A stretch of DNA of 41,529 nucleotides from a virus (taxonomy: Duplodnaviria > Caudoviricetes). The notes under the pieces were generated by a model. That model searched no databases. It was not told where the DNA came from and was given only the letters and a program-made list of their open reading frames with translations. Location: positions 1-41,529 of IMG/VR virus record IMGVR_UViG_3300037722_000461. One strand, written 5' to 3'. Shown here one piece after another: positions 24,177-32,395 of this stretch. The position numbers were made by a program, and so were the translations under genes. How positions within the stretch are numbered: position 1 is the stretch's first letter; every line of letters starts with the position of its first letter.

Positions 24177-24290
24177 TTACAATGGGTTTGCGTAACCCGC
24201 CCTATGCAGGCAAGTTACTTTCGGATTTCACGACATCAGGCAGGCTCAAAACCGCCGCCTTCAAAGAGTCGGGTTCACGCGGTGTTGGCT
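24177..24290 (-). repeat. attC7 (ibrAB cassette)
   Basis: AGCCAAC-acc-GCGT[G]AACCCG...CGGGTT-ACGC-aaaccc-ATTGTAA. Confidence 0.8.
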
Positions 24291-24462
24291 GTGCTTTTCC
24301 ATTTATTACCGCTGTTTCATAAGCAGACCATGACGGCTTGCCTTTATAAAAATAACCTGCCTTACCTGCGGCTTCGTTCAATGCCGCTGTGCGTTTTGAT
24401 TGCCGAGTTGCTTTTGTGCTGTCTTTCCAATTCGGATCATGCTTGCGTTTCTTTTGCTTCAT
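24202..24462 (-). CDS. Small basic, putative DNA-binding protein (last gene of ibrAB cassette)
   Basis: ATGA overlap with ibrB; C-terminus runs into attC7. Confidence 0.65.
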   Translation of the reverse strand: MKQKKRKHDPNWKDSTKATRQSKRTAALNEAAGKAGYFYKGKPSWSAYETAVINGKAQPTPREPDSLKAAVLSLPDVVKSESNLPA

Positions 24463-24977
24463 GCCATCTCCCATGCTTCGGAAAATTCATCATCTCCAAA
24501 CAAATCCGCAAGACCTGATATTTGCTTCAAACGCAAAACTTCATCAGGTTCCATTCCAAGTTCTTTTGCTATTTTCTGATCGCTCCAATTTCGGCGGGCA
24601 AGTTCTTGCACGATTTCAGACATTGCGCCTACTTGATGTTTTCCGCGTGCGCGATTATGGCGAATGGTTGAAGCAATGCGGTCTGATCGGTCTGTACGTC
24701 CTTCGCTGATTACGACAACAGGCAAATGAGACATGCCAAGTTTCTTGCCAACTAAATGACGGTGAAAACCATCAACGACTTCATAGCCGTTTTCAGTTTG
24801 CCAGACAACAATCGGCTGCGTAAAGCCATCTTCAAGGATACTCAATTCAAGCAATTCCATTTCAGGCTTTGCAACTGAGTTTGGGTTGTAATCGTTTGCA
24901 AAAACTTTATCCGTTAGAACCCATTGCACAAACGAAACTGGATGTTGTTTCGTCCACTCTAAATCATTAGTTTCCAT
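24459..24977 (-). CDS. ibrB: IbrB-like ParB/Srx-domain protein
   Basis: ANDYNPN, DGFTQPIV, VVDGFHR, STIRHNRARGKH. Confidence 0.9.
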   Translation of the reverse strand: METNDLEWTKQHPVSFVQWVLTDKVFANDYNPNSVAKPEMELLELSILEDGFTQPIVVWQTENGYEVVDGFHRHLVGKKLGMSHLPVVVISEGRTDRSDRIASTIRHNRARGKHQVGAMSEIVQELARRNWSDQKIAKELGMEPDEVLRLKQISGLADLFGDDEFSEAWEMA

Positions 24978-26161
24978 TCCTGTCTCCTGCGCTTCATCAA
25001 CTTTGTATATTTTTCGTATGCTTCGGATTTATGCTGACTAAAAGATAAGCCCTTGCACCAGTAGTCATTTCTCAAAAGTGCTTTGCAAATTCTCTTCCAA
25101 CTTGGCGCAGACTTGTCAAGCGGTCCGTCATCAGGAATTCCACCGGCATAACCGCGATCTTGATACCACTTCAAAAAAACAGCGATCTTATCTTTGTAGT
25201 GCTCCGCATGCTTTGGCGGAAGTGTGTCAATCAACATTAGCGCAAATGATTGCCAAGTGTGTCCAGGTGGAAGGGAAACTGTATTCACTCCGAGAATATT
25301 CCCGATTTCTTGAGCGTACAATGCGCCTTGATTTGCTCCGTTCACGCGGGCTACAATCTTCCCCCATGTTTCAGGCTCGATGATGTGAAACAGCCATAAA
25401 CCTTTTCGCTGATCGTCACCGTAGGGTTGGCAAATTCGCATTTGGTGAATCGTCAAACCTGCCTGATACATGCGGTCATAAAGTTTGTTGTATGGCTTAT
25501 CTGGATTGCGTCCCTGCCAAATCCAAAGGTCTTTTGTTTTCCAATCGTAAATCGGATAAGCATTGTAAAGACTTTCACCGCACCACGTTGTCCATTGATG
25601 ACCGTCAATAGTTTGTTTCTTTTCGCTTGCAATTGTGCGCCATCGGTTTAGGCTTTCATCTGTGCGGATGCCTACAAAGCAAGCCGTCAATTTCCCTTGA
25701 CCGTACCAATGACCGAACGCGGGGATAAATTCTTCAAACTCCATTGCGCTTCGGAAAAATGGAAAATAATTCTCATCCGTGATTGCCATCTCTGGCGGAT
25801 TTCTTATCCACGCTTCTTCTTTTCCTCGTTCCCAGCAGACCCATTGCGGCTGGTACTGGCTGACTGCATTACGAAGATGAATTGGCAATGCTACCCAATA
25901 AGGGTCAATGTTTTCTGCGTACATATCGTAGCAAGTTTTGATGTGGTCAATCGTGAGTTTATATTGTCCTTCCAAATCCACAAACAGCACGCCTATTTTC
26001 TTACCGCGTTTGATTGCTTCCGCCATTACTAAATGCAACATGACGGTTGAATCTTTCCCGCCAGAAAACGAAAGATAGATTTTCGGGAACGTGTCGAACA
26101 CATATTCTATTCGTCGTTTTGCGGCTTCGTAAGTTGTGATGCCGAGTGATCTTTTATCCAT
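24959..26161 (-). CDS. ibrA: IbrA-like PAPS-reductase-family/DUF3440 protein
   Basis: SFSGGKDS PP-loop, GIRTDESLNR, YPIYDW, RICQPYG, LLRNDYWC. Confidence 0.9.
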   Translation of the reverse strand: MDKRSLGITTYEAAKRRIEYVFDTFPKIYLSFSGGKDSTVMLHLVMAEAIKRGKKIGVLFVDLEGQYKLTIDHIKTCYDMYAENIDPYWVALPIHLRNAVSQYQPQWVCWERGKEEAWIRNPPEMAITDENYFPFFRSAMEFEEFIPAFGHWYGQGKLTACFVGIRTDESLNRWRTIASEKKQTIDGHQWTTWCGESLYNAYPIYDWKTKDLWIWQGRNPDKPYNKLYDRMYQAGLTIHQMRICQPYGDDQRKGLWLFHIIEPETWGKIVARVNGANQGALYAQEIGNILGVNTVSLPPGHTWQSFALMLIDTLPPKHAEHYKDKIAVFLKWYQDRGYAGGIPDDGPLDKSAPSWKRICKALLRNDYWCKGLSFSQHKSEAYEKYTKLMKRRRQEWKLMI

Positions 26162-26804: not shown

Positions 26805-26836
26805 TTTGTTATCTCCTTGTTTGGTTTGATTGCTCA

Positions 26837-26865
26837 ATATTACTACACGTTATATAACGTGTCAA
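26837..26865 (-). promoter_or_regulatory. Sigma70 promoter of ibrAB cassette with palindromic operator
   Basis: TTGACA-17 bp-TAATAT; perfect 18-bp palindrome ACACGTTATATAACGTGT (26845-26862). Confidence 0.8.
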
Positions 26866-26972: not shown

Positions 26973-27011
26973 GGATGCAAGCCCCCCGCACTTTGGGGGA
27001 GCGCAGCGTCC

Positions 27012-27151
27012 GCCGAACGGGCGCGGGATGAGCGGACGACGCGAGGGGCGGTCATCACAACTCATCCCAAGCCCTACTAATCAATCTTTGGTACGGACAT
27101 CATTGGCGGTCTCATCCGCCCCTGCTCGTTCCGCTCCATCCATAGTTCGGT
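27012..27151 (-). repeat. attC5
   Basis: ACCGAAC-tat-GGATG[G]AGCGG[A]ACG...CGT-CCGCT-CATCC-cgcgccc-GTTCGGC. Confidence 0.85.
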
Positions 27152-27200
27152 GGCGCGATAGCGAAGGAATCATCCTTGCTAATTTATGACAAATGGACAT
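27081..27200 (-). CDS. Cassette 5 short ORF (39 aa)
   Basis: GAGGTG RBS, TGATG overlap; MSICHKLARM... ends inside the attC5 loop. Confidence 0.4.
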   Translation of the reverse strand: MSICHKLARMIPSLSRHRTMDGAERAGADETANDVRTKD

Positions 27201-27562
27201 CACACCTCTTTTCTCTCAAGAACTATGGATGCATCCCGCGCCCGTTCGGTGGCGAGGCGAGGACTCTTCTTTGCAGGCTTCGGGTCATGGTCTGGATTGG
27301 TTAGAAGGCTTTCTAATTGCGCTTCCAACTCTTTTACGCGTTTCTGTAAAGCCCTAACCCGACTAGGTGCGGCATGTAGACTATCGGGCCAACCAAGACC
27401 GTCTTTCATTTTGTCACCGAACTGAGCTGCTTCATCGCAAGCCTGTAACGTGTTTCCATAAGTGGCGACATATTGCATGCGTCCCTTTGTGGCAAAGCAG
27501 ATGATATGGTCATATCCATATTTTTTCGACAATTCTTTTAGCGATTTGATTGGGATGTTCAT
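27200..27562 (-). CDS. Hypothetical protein nested in the cassette 5 leader
   Basis: GAAAGGA RBS; bracketed by GTTAGAAGGCT / AGCCTTCTAAC. Confidence 0.7.
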   Translation of the reverse strand: MNIPIKSLKELSKKYGYDHIICFATKGRMQYVATYGNTLQACDEAAQFGDKMKDGLGWPDSLHAAPSRVRALQKRVKELEAQLESLLTNPDHDPKPAKKSPRLATERARDASIVLERKEV

Positions 27563-27656
27563 AGATTCCTTTCTAGCAAAGTAGCCTTCTAACTCCTCAC
27601 GGCGGGCAAGCGGGGGCTAACGAGGGGGCTGGCGTACCCGCCAGTCTCCGAGCGCC

Positions 27657-27820
27657 ACCGAACGGGGGCGCGATGAGCCGCACGGCGACGGTTACGAAAG
27701 CGGCGTCTCTGATCCGCATTTATCACACTTGCACAATATACCAGGGTTTGCAGATGCAACCCAATGATGCTCACAAGCCGCTTGAGTGTCGCCAGTGTCG
27801 GCTCCATTGCTGTGTTCGGC
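27657..27820 (-). repeat. attC4
   Basis: GCCGAAC-acagca-ATG[G]AGCCG[A]CAC..GGCGAC...GTCGCC-GTG-CGGCT-CAT-cgcgccccc-GTTCGGT. Confidence 0.85.
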
Positions 27821-27940
27821 GGCACGGGTTATCTCGTCAAAATACTCATCTTCCGTCATTTGGATGAGATAGAGAAAGATACGGAAGGCTACACCCGACA
27901 ACCATTCTCGAATTTTACTGCCTAAACTTTGTTTACCCAT
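27692..27940 (-). CDS. Cassette 4 ORF: helical N-module plus C-terminal Zn finger
   Basis: GAAAGGTG RBS; CEHHW...CDKC encoded in the attC4 loop. Confidence 0.65.
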   Translation of the reverse strand: MGKQSLGSKIREWLSGVAFRIFLYLIQMTEDEYFDEITRAAEHSNGADTGDTQAACEHHWVASANPGILCKCDKCGSETPLS

Positions 27941-28009
27941 TCGTCTTCACCTTTCAGAGAGCCGATACACAGCAATTGCATCGCGCCCCCGTTCGGCGGC
28001 GAAGCCGCT

Positions 28010-28219
28010 CTACCGCCCATGAAAATCCAAGGCTTGTTGATAGCGACCATTGGCGTCACCGCCAGCAGACACAGCAGACACAACGGATGCCCACTCCTCA
28101 GGCGGAATGACCATACGAGTAATGATAGGCGATTCAAGCCCTGCATCTTTGCGCTTGGTGACCATCACCGAGCCATCCGGCAAGCGCTGGAAAAACCATC
28201 CTTCTTTCAAGTGAAACAT
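28010..28219 (-). CDS. Hypothetical protein nested in the cassette 4 leader
   Basis: GAGGAGG RBS; flanked by a perfect 14-bp inverted repeat. Confidence 0.7.
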   Translation of the reverse strand: MFHLKEGWFFQRLPDGSVMVTKRKDAGLESPIITRMVIPPEEWASVVSAVSAGGDANGRYQQALDFHGR

Positions 28220-28295
28220 TTGTGCCTCCTCAGGCGGTAGAGCGGCGGTAACGAGTGATGCCCACGCTCTTGGTTTATGTGGGCGTCCGAGTGCC

Positions 28296-28455
28296 GCCGA
28301 ATGGCGCGAGCGTCACCTGACGTCCGCCGTTTTGAGAACTGCGCTCACCGCTTCGTAAGACTCTTCTGAAAGCAAGTCCATTTCGTTATCGTGCCTGTCT
28401 CGAATTGTGCGGAGCAGTTCGATGGCGGAACGTTCAGGTGCACGCAGAGTTGGGC
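28296..28455 (-). repeat. attC3
   Basis: GCCCAAC-tct-GCGT[G]CACCTG[A]ACG...CGT-CAGGTG-ACGC-tcgcgcc-ATTCGGC. Confidence 0.85.
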
Positions 28456-28642
28456 TGCGCGGGTCAAGGCAAAAAGCATTGTCATAAATGAAATTAGCCA
28501 GTCGAGATACTTCATCTGCAAATGTTTTTAACATTGCCGCCGTCGTTTCTGGCGAGATACCATTGTCCCAATAGTACTCATTCAGCGCATCTCTCATTGC
28601 CTGATATTTTTCAGAGTTTCTCGTAACATCTATTTGCGACAT
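28313..28642 (-). CDS. Cassette 3 ORF, hypothetical
   Basis: GAAAGGT RBS; reads through the attC left arm (PTLRAP); stop lies within L'. Confidence 0.7.
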   Translation of the reverse strand: MSQIDVTRNSEKYQAMRDALNEYYWDNGISPETTAAMLKTFADEVSRLANFIYDNAFCLDPRSPTLRAPERSAIELLRTIRDRHDNEMDLLSEESYEAVSAVLKTADVR

Positions 28643-28739
28643 ACTTTACCTTTCTACTAAAGCGCAGGTCAATCTCTGCGTTTACGCTCGCGCCATTGGG
28701 CTGACCAAGCCCCCCGCCTTTTGGGGGAGCGAAGCGTCA

Positions 28740-28967
28740 GCCCAATGGGGCGCGGAATAAGCGGCGAGCGGGGCGTTTAGAAAAGCCGCCATCTTTCGTG
28801 CCAAATATTTACTCGACATCGGGAAGCCACGGTTCACTCCCAAAAGGGACGAACATTTGGCAACCTTCACATTTATAGCCATAGTATCCTTTCTTCCAGT
28901 CGTGCTTATTAGGATTGCACGATGGGCTTTTCTGCCCCGCATCGACCGCTTCATTCCGCAGTTCGTC
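28740..28967 (-). repeat. attC2
   Basis: GACGAAC-t-GCGGAAT[G]AAGCGG[T]CGA.GCGGGG...CCCCGC-TCG-CCGCTT-ATTCCGC-gcccc-ATTGGGC. Confidence 0.85.
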
Positions 28968-29078
28968 GGCGCGTATCTGGCTCGTGTTGATGACTTCAAG
29001 TTCACACTTGCAGGCGACGCACCAATTGTAGAGAGTATTAAAGTAGACTTGTCGGCATGACGGGCAATATAGAAACAT
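28809..29078 (-). CDS. Cassette 2 ORF: two Cys-rich modules
   Basis: AAGGAG RBS; CPSC..CVAC, then C....H....CEGC in the attC2 loop. Confidence 0.7.
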   Translation of the reverse strand: MFLYCPSCRQVYFNTLYNWCVACKCELEVINTSQIRADELRNEAVDAGQKSPSCNPNKHDWKKGYYGYKCEGCQMFVPFGSEPWLPDVE

Positions 29079-29176
29079 AGCGACACTCCTTTACTTTCTG
29101 GAGACGGGCTGAGGAATGTATCCCGCGCCCCATTCGTCGGACCAAGCCCCCCGCAGTTTGGGGGAGCGAAGCGTCA

Positions 29177-29410
29177 GCCCAATGGCGCGAGCGTCACCTG
29201 CAAGGGCGACGTTCACGCAGAAATCGGTTTCCCGCAATGAAAACAAAAAAAGACTTCGTTTTCGTCAAGGTCACCGTCAATAAAACAATACGCGCTTCCA
29301 CACGCGGTATCATACGAGCTACTTTCCTCGTCATCATTGCGCGTCCAGCTACACGTTTGCACGGACGATTTCGGAGTGTCGTCCTTGACAGGTGCACGCA
29401 GTAGTTGGGC
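29177..29410 (-). repeat. attC1
   Basis: GCCCAAC-tact-GCGT[G]CACCTG[T]CAAGG.CGAC...GTCG.CCTTG-CAGGTG-ACGC-tcgcgcc-ATTGGGC. Confidence 0.85.
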
Positions 29411-29533
29411 TGCGCGGGGTTGCCATTCATTCACCCACGATGGAGCCAAAAACATGGGGTACTCTTTACAAACCGTCTGTATCCAATAGACAGCATTATT
29501 AATCATTTCATCTTTCGTCAATGTTTGCGACAT
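29213..29533 (-). CDS. Cassette 1 ORF with C-terminal Zn-ribbon domain
   Basis: GAGAGGT RBS; CSW...TACG...FCFHCGKPI encoded in the attC1 loop. Confidence 0.7.
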   Translation of the reverse strand: MSQTLTKDEMINNAVYWIQTVCKEYPMFLAPSWVNEWQPRAAQLLRAPVKDDTPKSSVQTCSWTRNDDEESSSYDTACGSAYCFIDGDLDENEVFFCFHCGKPISA

Positions 29534-29553: not shown

Positions 29554-29592
29554 GCAGCCCTACTATCCTTATCCACTTACGGACGGATAATA
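29554..29592 (-). other. Putative attI, overlapping the 3' end of intI
   Basis: ATTATCCGTCCGTAAGTGGATAAGGATA-GTAGGGCTGC; the core is complementary (1 mismatch) to the cassette 1 R'' GCAGCCCAAC. Confidence 0.6.
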
Positions 29593-30602
29593 TTCCACTG
29601 GACAGACTCCAATTTATCCAGCGGACTTTCCACCCCAACGCCCCCAGGGTGGAGAAGATGCAAATAGACCATCGTGGTTTTGATATCCTTGTGTCCCATC
29701 AATTCCTGCACTGTGCGAATGTCGTATCCAGCCCAGAGCAAATGAGTTGCATAACAATGGCGGAATACGTGTGGTGTGACACGTTTCGTGATCCCAGCCT
29801 TGATAGTCGCTCTGCGGATCGCCCGTTGCAGTTCGCTCTCGTGCTGATGGTGCCGTCGGCGGATCTTCGTCTCAGGGTCTACGCTGTAATTCTGCGCAGG
29901 AAATACCCAGAACCAACCCCAATCACAGCCGATGTTTGGATATTTCCTGTCCAGCGCTCCAGGGACGTATACACCAGGCATCCCGCGCTGTTGATCGATA
30001 TTCCAGAAATTCCGCGCAATGGACATCTGATCCATCAACGGCTTGACCAGTGTGTTCGGCAATGGGACCGTGCGATCTTTGTCCCCCTTGCCGCCTCGCA
30101 CCGTGACAGTCATCAACCCGAAATCAATATCCTTGGTCCGCAACTGTTGACACTCATTCAGTCGCAGACCACACCCATACAGTAACCGCGCCATCAAATT
30201 TAACGGATCGCCATCTACGTGATTCAAGACACGCGCCGTATCCTCGCGGTTCAATACTGACGGCAGTCTCTTCCCTTCCTTCGCTCGCATGGACTCCACT
30301 CCCCGAATGTCCACACCCAGAATTTCACGGTAAAGGAATAGGATCGCATGGAGACATTGATTCTGTGTTGAAGCGGCAACCTTAGCAGTGTTGGCAAGAT
30401 GATTTAAATACTTTTCGATCTCCGCTTTTCCCATCTCGCGCGGATGCCGCTTTCCGTGGAAGAGGATGAACCGTCTGCACCAGGTCACATAGGTTGTCAG
30501 TGTTTTTCGGCTGTAATGTTTCATGCGGATTTTATCCGCCAGTTGATCAAGTAACTTCGGTTCAGGCATTGACAGCATCTCCTTGTAATTCGGCTTGTCC
30601 AC
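29577..30602 (-). CDS. intI: Integron integrase
   Basis: KLLDQ..IRMKHYS.KT...VAASTQNQ N-domain; GLR, GKGDKDR, HVFRH, LMGH, TMVY catalytic set; IntI-specific insertion VYVPGALDRKYP...W.WFWVFPA. Confidence 0.97.
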   Translation of the reverse strand: MDKPNYKEMLSMPEPKLLDQLADKIRMKHYSRKTLTTYVTWCRRFILFHGKRHPREMGKAEIEKYLNHLANTAKVAASTQNQCLHAILFLYREILGVDIRGVESMRAKEGKRLPSVLNREDTARVLNHVDGDPLNLMARLLYGCGLRLNECQQLRTKDIDFGLMTVTVRGGKGDKDRTVPLPNTLVKPLMDQMSIARNFWNIDQQRGMPGVYVPGALDRKYPNIGCDWGWFWVFPAQNYSVDPETKIRRRHHQHESELQRAIRRATIKAGITKRVTPHVFRHCYATHLLWAGYDIRTVQELMGHKDIKTTMVYLHLLHPGGVGVESPLDKLESVQWNIIRP

Positions 30603-32395
30603 TAGAATCCCAGACCTTCCAAGCTCCTCGATGATGTTGCTTCGCGCAGGGCGGCGACGCGGATGAGGGCGGTGATGGATGCGGCGAGCAGGTCCACGCG
30701 TTTGGTGTCGCCTGCGAACTTTTTGGTTATCATTATGTTTTCCTTCGAATCGGTGATCTGTATGGCGTTGGCCACGTGCGCCCGCAGGAGGGGGTTCCCA
30801 TCGTGGACGAAATTACCAGAGATGACGAGCTCGCGCAGGTATTTTGTGGCTTCTGACAGGCTGGGCATGGTCTGGCGAACCTCGACGCGGGTATAACCAC
30901 GTTCTTCGAAATCGATAGCAAAGCGGGTGGCGGAGTAGGGGTCGTAACAGAGTTCAAAAATGCGGATCTGCCCGTCGAGTTCAGAATCAATGATGAAGTC
31001 ACGCATGACTCTGTCGTCGATCACGTCGCCTGGGTTGGTGGTGATCCAGCCATCGTCAACGTATGTCTGATAGGGTATCTTGTCAGATTTTTCGTGAGCG
31101 GCGATGGCTTCTTCGGGCAGGAACCCGTGAGCGGTGAGGGCGACGCGCTCTTCGTCCATCGAAAAGATAAAGGCGGAGGCGGTGAGATCGATCTTTTTGG
31201 ACAGGTCAGCGCCCACGAGCGCATCCATGCCATGTGTGAGTTCGTCGAAGTCTGCGCGGGGGATGGCGCAGGCATCCCATTGTTCCATGAATTCTCCCAT
31301 ATAGCTGTCTCCTTTTGCGCCGTGTATCCAGAGGTTGAGTTTCTTGATACGGAACTGGCGCACCTTTTCGGGTATCTTGCTATCGAAGGCTGCGTCGTGC
31401 ATTTCTTGGAATTCGGCAATGCCTTCGGGTGTGGCGCACAGCAATGGATTGGCTTTGATCCAGTTGGCGGGTTTGTGTTCTTTGTCGTTCTTGTCGAGCT
31501 CGCGGATCATGACGAAATATCCATCGTTTGGAACGCGACCAGAGACGATCTCCCGGCAGTATTCGATTTCTTTGTAGCAGGACGACTCGGTATCGTTGCC
31601 CGCAGTGGTGATGATGAGCATGAGCGGCTGGAGACGCTGGCCCTGGGCAAGGTCGAGCGCGTCGTAGATCTCAGAAGTCTTGTGCGCCCAGTATTCATCA
31701 ATGACGGAGCAGGTGGGCGAGAAAGCGTCTTTGTTCTGGATGTCGCCCGAAAAGGCTCTCATTTCGCCGCCGCGGTCCTTATGGCGCATGTCGAAGAGTC
31801 CGATCTTGAGGCGTTTGCGAATACTCTTGGATTTTTTTGCCATGTCGCGTGCCGAGTTAAAGCACACTCTGGCTTGTAGTTTATCAACGGCGGCGGTGTA
31901 GACTTCTGGATTTTCCTCCATATCGGCGACCATCATATAGAGCGCGACGCCCGCTATGCGGGTGGTCTTGGCGTTCTTGCGTCCCTCGGTGATAAGTGCC
32001 TTACGGTAGCGGCGGATGCCTACCCTGCGACCATTGGAGCGGGTGATCTTTTTCGCGCGCGAGACCCATCCGAAGATCGAACCGATGTCGAAAACGTGGG
32101 CGGGGATGAGTTCGATGGGCTGTCCGACGAGCCTTCCCTTGATGTGCTGGAGTTCGCGGAACCAGTCGATGGCGACGAACGACGCCTGCGTTTCGTCGAA
32201 CTCCCAGGGGAAAGACCCGTCTTTCTTCGGAACAGCTTTTTTCGTCCCTTTACGCACCCTGGCTCTGAGGGACGAGTTCATCTGCCCTGCGCGGGCAAGG
32301 TCGTGCAGGTGGCGGAAACATGCCTGCCGCTCGGGCGTGCCTGTGATGACTCGGTTCTCGATCACGTCGAGGGCGTAGGATGTGACAGGGTGCAT
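30602..32395 (-). CDS. terL: Terminase large subunit
   Basis: Walker A GRKNAKT, Walker B VIDE, ITTAG, GADLS...DLTA, YDPY, RVD. Confidence 0.95.
   Translation of the reverse strand: MHPVTSYALDVIENRVITGTPERQACFRHLHDLARAGQMNSSLRARVRKGTKKAVPKKDGSFPWEFDETQASFVAIDWFRELQHIKGRLVGQPIELIPAHVFDIGSIFGWVSRAKKITRSNGRRVGIRRYRKALITEGRKNAKTTRIAGVALYMMVADMEENPEVYTAAVDKLQARVCFNSARDMAKKSKSIRKRLKIGLFDMRHKDRGGEMRAFSGDIQNKDAFSPTCSVIDEYWAHKTSEIYDALDLAQGQRLQPLMLIITTAGNDTESSCYKEIEYCREIVSGRVPNDGYFVMIRELDKNDKEHKPANWIKANPLLCATPEGIAEFQEMHDAAFDSKIPEKVRQFRIKKLNLWIHGAKGDSYMGEFMEQWDACAIPRADFDELTHGMDALVGADLSKKIDLTASAFIFSMDEERVALTAHGFLPEEAIAAHEKSDKIPYQTYVDDGWITTNPGDVIDDRVMRDFIIDSELDGQIRIFELCYDPYSATRFAIDFEERGYTRVEVRQTMPSLSEATKYLRELVISGNFVHDGNPLLRAHVANAIQITDSKENIMITKKFAGDTKRVDLLAASITALIRVAALREATSSRSLEGLGF

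Follow-up and report, generated by a model that had tools for sequence, protein, structure and literature searches.

Can the loop of an attC site hold a protein module of its own and, if so, how do such modules come to stand behind different front halves? Integrons are viewed as systems that shuffle genes, in which the attC loop is structural only and does not code. The question is raised by a stretch of viral DNA of 41,529 nucleotides (IMG/VR record IMGVR_UViG_3300037722_000461), here called the window, in which four cassette ORFs continue through one arm of a long attC-like site into its loop. We refer to the part of each ORF ahead of the site as the head and to the loop-encoded part as the tail.

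An integron in the late operon of a phage

The window is a virus record with terminase, portal, endolysin and phage integrase genes. On its minus strand, which carries all features described here, we found an integron composed of an intact intI, an attI and six attC-like sites. IntI (29577..30602) scored 424.8 bits against TIGR02249, whose cut-off is 265. Its gene is co-oriented with the cassette array and directly follows terL, the terminase large subunit gene (30602..32395; Pfam TerL domains), whose stop overlaps or touches the intI start codon at 30602; this overlap places the integron in the late operon. In four other phages or prophages (L001 to L003 and L382), the integron lies in positions other than after terL. 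Residues R147, K172, H278, R281, H304 and Y313, which we take to be the catalytic residues of a tyrosine recombinase, are invariant across four phage IntIs, and the enzyme is presumably active. The nearest genome relatives of the window IntI are those of Chloroflexi bacterium CFX6 (88% identical) and of Anaerolineales genomes (69-78%), and because of these relatives the phage probably has an Anaerolineales host. CFX6 carries a prophage copy of the integron (L382, 8001-10600) with ordinary-spacer read-through cassettes, which is a possible handle on the host.

Directly 3' of the intI stop lies an attI-like site (29557..29574), with its G|T junction at 29563/29562. An identical 11-nt motif followed by G|T, with variable sequence beyond, was observed in L001, L002, L003 and L382, so that five phages or prophages including the window have the pattern; from its sequence, the conserved motif after the intI stop is read as the putative attI. 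Cassette 1 begins at this G|T, and 9 of the 10 bases at its start are complementary to its own R''. The check for a Pc promoter gave no sigma-70-like site near attI (5 found versus 3.6 expected), and transcription of the array by read-through from terL and intI is possible.

The first four sites are attC1 (29177..29410; 234 bp, loop of 192 nt), attC2 (28740..28967; 228 bp, 185 nt), attC3 (28296..28455; 160 bp, 119 nt) and attC4 (27657..27820; 164 bp, 120 nt). They are followed by attC5 (27012..27151; 140 bp), with a 39-codon ORF across it, and by attC6 (24177..24290; 114 bp), which closes the array and is read through by an ORF (inside 24202-24474) with 61 codons ahead of R''. For comparison, the available text of two papers gives natural attC loops as 3-100 nt (PMC7439510) and 20-100 nt (10.1101/030866). 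In attC1 to attC4, R'' has AAC, L'' and L' are complementary without any L-box mismatch, the inner stems are long, and all four have two bulges, one of them an extrahelical base at L'' position 4. On the bottom strand the first bulged base is C or T, where G is typical. The conserved GTT of R' is present at attC4 but replaced by ATT at attC1 to attC3, and because of this missing GTT these three are named attC-like. The unpaired central spacers of a usual attC measure 5 and 6 nt; those of attC1 to attC4 measure 4-6 nt on the left and 8-9 nt on the right, versus 4 and 6 nt in the ordinary class of the family. In the lowest-energy fold of each site alone, the R boxes were paired in attC1 and attC5, and the L stem only in attC2 to attC4. 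Window sites scored 52-78 with our family detector, whereas 935,237 shuffled bases gave one match, at 30-34; these shuffles rule out chance hairpins as the origin of the sites.

The original prediction, made from the sequence without database searches, had described four attC sites of 160-234 bp, longer than usual, and the measured lengths bear this out. It had overlooked the ATT at R' of sites 1 to 3, the right spacers of 8-9 nt, attC5 and attC6, as well as the inverted arm copies upstream of cassettes 2 to 5 described below.

Cassette ORFs cross the left arm into the loop

ORF1 (29213..29533; 106 aa) comprises a 41-aa head, an arm-encoded linker and a Cys-rich loop module. The same order was observed in ORF2 (28809..29078; 89 aa; 37-aa head, C-H-C-C loop module), ORF3 (28313..28642; 109 aa; 62-aa head, Cys-free loop module) and ORF4 (27692..27940; 82 aa; 40-aa head, Cys/His loop module). 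Thus, 41, 37, 62 and 40 codons precede R'', and 65, 52, 46 and 42 codons run from R'' on. The stops lie 15, 47, -4 (that is, inside L') and 13 nt ahead of L'. All this agrees with the predicted course of four ORFs through R'' and L'' into the loop, with stops before or at L', and the linkers named at that time (QLLRAP, PTLRAP, RADELRNEA and RAAEHSNGAD) were all recovered. So was the Cys/His character of three of the four modules: the clusters are in loops 1, 2 and 4, and loop 3 has no Cys. If translated as read, each ORF would yield a fusion of head and tail.

To judge from their motifs, loop modules 1, 2 and 4 probably bind zinc. Among ORF2 relatives, H59, C70 and C73 are invariant and C54 is kept in 10 of 11, and linker plus loop show 20 invariant columns behind unrelated heads. 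The Cys residues of the ORF1 loop are retained in relatives P0001 to P0003. An AlphaFold model of ORF2 gave two confident segments and a low-confidence linker (38-51) over the arm; the fold search with this model returned no PDB match at E up to 0.001, with weak zinc-protein rows only. Searches of Pfam and NCBIfam gave the modules no family label above cut-off, and loop 1 matched PHROG 10312, a family with no assigned function.

The loop 1 family has 668 clustered representatives at E up to 0.001. Among the 149 top relatives examined, 99 carry it near the C-terminus, and just one has an arm-like linker. A de novo origin of loop 1 is ruled out by these 668 relatives and is also countered by the use of the family in the head slot of L114, L115 and L304. 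The loop 2 family was likewise found at the start of another ORF (L295, 2558).

The same loops stand behind unrelated heads

We searched for heads and loops separately and found all four loop modules of the window with unrelated front halves. Loop 1 occurs with three different heads; one of them joins through a different linker frame, for which a 4-nt instead of a 5-nt spacer would compensate, as inferred from the peptides. Loop 2 was retained in 10 of 10 matches, in about eight head groups by eye, one of which is perhaps related to the window head. Loop 3 stands behind another head in L253, and head 3 is followed by a Cys loop in L012 and by a different tail in L013. Loop 4 was identical at 33 of 33 residues behind another head in P0015, and at the DNA level it showed no difference over 155 nt (27672-27826) in an independent metagenome contig with another head (run X2). 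One head family (P0004) is joined to loop 2, to loop 4 and to two or more other endings (three by the fuller count). For heads 2 and 4 we found no close relative with another loop, and the relatives of head 1 carry only its own loop.

The pattern extends to the family, counted in pairs that are not independent: heads at least 70% identical had unrelated loops in 18 of 29 pairs, and loops at least 76% identical had unrelated heads in 125 of 139. The original prediction had held the attC loop to be a second cargo slot that allows combinatorial two-domain proteins. Loops with many unrelated partners uphold the larger part of that claim, which did not name the process behind the swaps.

Assembly chimeras were rejected as a source of the head-loop pairs, since each pair lies intact, with no differences, within a single contig piece of run X1, a run that is possibly not independent of the window. 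No X1 piece bridges the hairpin spacers described below, so that the pieces bear on the pairs and not on the order of cassettes 1 to 3.

Selection acts on Cys-rich loops

For the family survey we fetched 461 loci and built a detector for the arms, and only detector matches were counted; this holds also for the 119 loci from one pattern search, which were mostly unrelated. The phage family comprises viral loci and loci with close IntI relatives, and site sets were de-duplicated for exact copies only. Among the resulting 325 distinct phage-family sites, the ORF reads into the loop or beyond at 253 and stops before or in the left arm at 61, and 11 have no ORF. In contrast, at 21 sites near other bacterial IntIs, 18 ORFs stop before the arm and 2 read through (p 1e-10).

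An open frame was dropped as evidence of coding, since the loops are open in frame at 175 of 253 sites and in the +1 frame at 154 of 253. The Cys motifs are frame specific. Among 189 read-through loops of at least 60 nt, 55 have CxxC in frame, versus 5, 10, 6, 7 and 8 in the other five frames, and two CxxC were observed in 27 loops in frame versus none in other frames. Moreover, six disjoint pairs of Cys loops, all with unrelated heads, gave a pN/pS of 0.52 ungapped (p 3e-5) and 0.33 with codon gaps, in pairs picked for being Cys-rich, which biases pN downward. For these pairs the values were 1.03 and 1.10 in the shifted frames and 1.10, 0.60 and 0.88 in the antisense frames, of which the frame with 0.60 likely shares codon positions. 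Cys-rich loops of the family are thus under purifying selection in frame, as the original prediction of loop-encoded modules had implied.

This applies to about a quarter of the tails. Cys modules make up 59 of 250, and to these the cargo-slot claim extends in the wider family; the other 191 are non-Cys, and 16 non-Cys pairs were near neutral (pN/pS 0.76, p 0.08). Several non-Cys loop families are found in more than one frame or downstream of a stop codon, so that read-through is not by itself sufficient to call a loop a protein module. The family holds both selected modules and passenger tails. By motif and conservation, three of the window's four loops read as the selected kind. Loop 3, the sole window loop with a DNA-level pair, gave a pN of 0.29 and a pS of 0.37 in that one pair, and the search of viral contigs for DNA loci of loop 2 yielded one weak locus only.

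Two further kinds of tail were observed. Some non-Cys tails have a QLSLF-like motif, presumably a sliding-clamp motif, in frame in 13 of 250 versus 0 and 4 in shifted frames; they often stand behind methyltransferase-like heads (for example, L002 9616, L122 2983, L128 2997 on the minus strand and L131 2485). A third class of loop tail is a hydrophobic helix, likely membrane-spanning, behind unrelated heads (L111 2997 and L172 2997, both on the minus strand, L126 1018 and L174 675).

Mirror sites upstream of cassettes

Upstream of cassettes 2 to 5 we found an inverted copy of the cassette's own attC arms without the loop, which we call a mirror site. Its order is right spacer, three L bases, a turn of 0-4 nt (short, and A-rich or GNA), three L bases and left spacer. 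In the window, mirror site 2, with attC2 arms, lies at 29103..29138, mirror site 3 at 28668..28701, mirror site 4 at 27962..27997, and mirror site 5 at 27217..27250, within the 3' end of a 120-aa ORF. A search from each attC outward found mirrors at 10 of 325 sites and at none of the 245 ordinary-spacer sites, and the control with another cassette's arms gave 0 of 1621. A de novo search gave 40 rows; once alternative registers, two readings of the reverse strand and one row lacking an ORF had been removed, 18 units on 10 contigs were left.

With the upstream mirror present, each unit is expected to refold as a three-way junction. Such junctions were predicted for the four window units on both strands, with z of -5 to -8 versus 30 shuffles, and the base facing R' position 1 co-varied in 16 of the 18 units (p 0.001; the units are not independent). 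In X2 and X5 a mirror stands ahead of cassette 1, and the attI junction of the window falls at its inner box. Because of this coincidence, the inner box is likely a usable junction and an extra entry point.

Ahead of most mirror sites lies a 24-nt G/C hairpin spacer (29144..29167, with copies at 28707-28730 and 26979-27002). It is also found in the viral contigs L001 and L012 to L018, and a search of 401 genomes of the order to which the L382 genome belongs did not find it.

Cassette and site lengths fall in steps

Across the family, attC lengths cluster at 55-60, 88-98, 105-112, 120-132, 158-166, 194 and 228-234 bp, and cassette bodies near 155, 226 and 297 nt, with a minimum body of 145 nt. 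Both thus step by about 35 and 70 nt, and after merging of related heads the period was 36 nt (Rayleigh Z 31, n=112, 0 of 1000 jitter nulls). In the bacterial control, attC lengths clustered alike, and the 37 bodies, all above 270 nt, showed no period. The footprint of SSB is 35 or 65 nt, and one idea is that it sets these steps.

How heads and tails are probably re-paired

We consider it probable that the window holds a phage-borne integron whose ORFs cross the left arm of attC into the loop and whose heads and tails are re-paired by short-homology crossovers in the arms. The loops would encode conserved, likely zinc-binding C-terminal modules, and IntI would move whole cassettes at the R' core. 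The starts of 182 of 219 cassettes complement their own R'', identical cassettes diverge right after GTT, and the right arm of attC4 has other neighbours in runs X2, X3 and X7. Since the IntI reaction at G|TT keeps head and loop together, a swap needs a crossover in the left arm, that is, a second process. Such crossovers would take place within the 20-30 conserved nucleotides of the arms, by short-homology annealing or template switching; the arms would serve as a fixed in-frame joint, with spacer length keeping the frame compatible. The modules themselves are likely recruited from the ordinary phage pool, because the loop 1 family also fills the head slot in other arrays.

Sequence around the junctions points in the same direction. 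R'' tracks the head and the inner stem tracks the loop, and the left spacer between them was identical in 8 of 9 pairs without a swap, in 4 of 12 that share a head and in 8 of 34 that share a loop, against a background of 17% (p 0.024 and 0.0006; the pairs are few and non-independent, and a mix of IntI cuts is compatible with them). A left spacer that tracks neither side speaks for crossovers by short homology within the arms rather than for one fixed cut by the integrase, and a single fixed crossover at R'' or L'' is not supported by this pattern. In contigs of runs X2 and X6, cassette 3 kept its RBS segment and its two arms while head and loop were both replaced (head from 181 to 116 nt, loop from 105 to 174 nt). 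No annealase was recognised among the 27 window ORFs scanned, and a host or helper enzyme must thus be assumed.

Could IntI itself swap heads and tails with the help of the mirror, by exchanging top strands at R'' or by acting a second time, at the L box? At the three-way junction, the mirror would give it fully paired duplex sites. The mirrors match the spacers of their own cassette (0 of 1621 in the control), co-variation with the first R' base was seen at the facing position in 16 of 18 units, both strands of all four window units are predicted to fold in this way, and cassette 1 joins attI exactly at the position of the relatives' mirror inner box. Moreover, the accessible parts of two papers report low-rate top-strand (PMC5027507) and L-box (PMC4792948) events for IntI1, the latter in 1 of 607 (PMC4792948), a rarity that weighs against this account. 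If cuts fell only at R'', the left spacer should go with the loop, which was seen in 8 of 34 pairs; if they fell only at L, it should go with the head, seen in 4 of 12. Swaps are also common in mirrorless sites, no mirror being present at the 245 ordinary-spacer sites. On balance we hold an exchange by IntI to be rather unlikely. We are equally doubtful of its extended form, a two-slot integron in which the phage IntI uses the mirror three-way junction to exchange heads and loops apart from whole-cassette shuffling and so assembles two-domain proteins in many combinations, from modules in steps of about 35 nt; if true, that length rule would expose how cassettes are made.

Re-pairing might instead occur only when a cassette is made, with a gene receiving its attC from a shared pool, some members of which have coding loops, and no later swap. 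Loop families are indeed common to unrelated genes, in all three frames and behind stops, the quantised body and attC lengths could reflect the making process, and the available text of PMC5371416 treats cassette genesis as largely unknown. Yet heads of 88-100% identity carry unrelated loops at the same R'' junction, for which the same gene would have had to be captured repeatedly at the same base, and loop 4 DNA is identical behind two heads; we find this account improbable. A last account, in which read-through merely keeps ribosomes crossing the hairpin to couple downstream translation and the tails are passengers, draws on the short ORFs in attC said to relieve the stem-loop barrier in the accessible text of PMC8876359 and on the near-neutral non-Cys tails. 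Such coupling likely accounts for many tails of the family. It leaves unexplained the frame-specific CxxC, the pN/pS of 0.52, the 20 invariant columns of ORF2 and the 668-cluster family of loop 1, and as a full explanation it is very improbable. Crossovers in the arms thus remain our preferred reading.

Relation to known systems

The window shares with integrons and CALINs, including phage-borne ones (Qi et al. 2023, PMC9892861, as far as its accessible text goes), an IntI above the family cut-off, an attI, cassette starts complementary to R'', R''-L''-loop-L'-R' hairpins with bulged bases and neighbours that change at G|TT. The three complete phage integrons named in that text are from Vibrio, E. 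coli P1 and Shewanella phages. The window family differs from known integrons in arm read-through (253 of 325 versus 2 of 21 near bacterial IntIs) and in loops that are selected protein modules re-pairing with heads. The window also differs in an intI co-oriented with the array and an attI at its 3' end, and in sites of up to 234 bp with ATT cores and mirror copies. What is likely new with respect to known integrons is the attC loop as a second, exchangeable coding slot.

Synthetic coding attC sites (Nivina et al. 2020, PMC7439510) likewise use attC as a peptide linker, and module shuffling was proposed for them. According to the text available, those sites are engineered: their loops measure 3-21 nt, the entire site serves as the linker and exchange takes place at R'. 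The window sites, by contrast, are natural, with the left arm alone as linker and the loop as a second module. Translation across the attC hairpin is also common to the short ORFs in attC and fused cassettes of PMC8876359, in the accessible part of which they serve translational coupling or result from attC loss, with no conserved domain or head-tail exchange described. Phage protein-fragment mosaicism (PMC10684548; lambda Ea22, PMC10834534) shares exchangeable N- and C-terminal parts and small proteins, in keeping with the C-terminal place of the loop 1 family in most of its top relatives; its joints are not tied to a recombination site, to judge from the single arm-like linker among the 149 relatives of loop 1, unlike the window arms. 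Coding attC loops are not described in the accessible text of PMC5371416, PMC8352920, 10.1101/030866 and 10.1101/2022.02.06.479319, and our literature search, with most subscription papers and supplements outside its reach, found no description of coding, swappable attC loops.

An attC loop under protein-level selection that re-pairs with heads amounts to natural domain shuffling, so far proposed only for engineered attC, and the re-paired loops offer a defined, testable route to mosaic small phage proteins. The mirror sites and the 35/70-nt steps are handles on how cassettes and attC sites are made, and the intact IntI can be cloned together with its attI.

Other ORFs of the array

Between attC3 and mirror site 4 lies a 69-aa ORF (28010..28219), enclosed by a 14-nt inverted repeat whose R boxes are decayed. 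The 120-aa ORF (27200..27562) runs through mirror site 5 at its 3' end. It has R' and R'' boxes that match each other (27297-27310 and 27585-27594) and neither an L arm nor a loop; it is likely a cassette whose attC was lost and which now reads into the mirror. The last and largest cassette interval (27012-24177) holds a DUF3440/PAPS-reductase-like and ParB-like gene pair (24459-26161), with a sigma-70-like, promoter-like site at 26836-26865.
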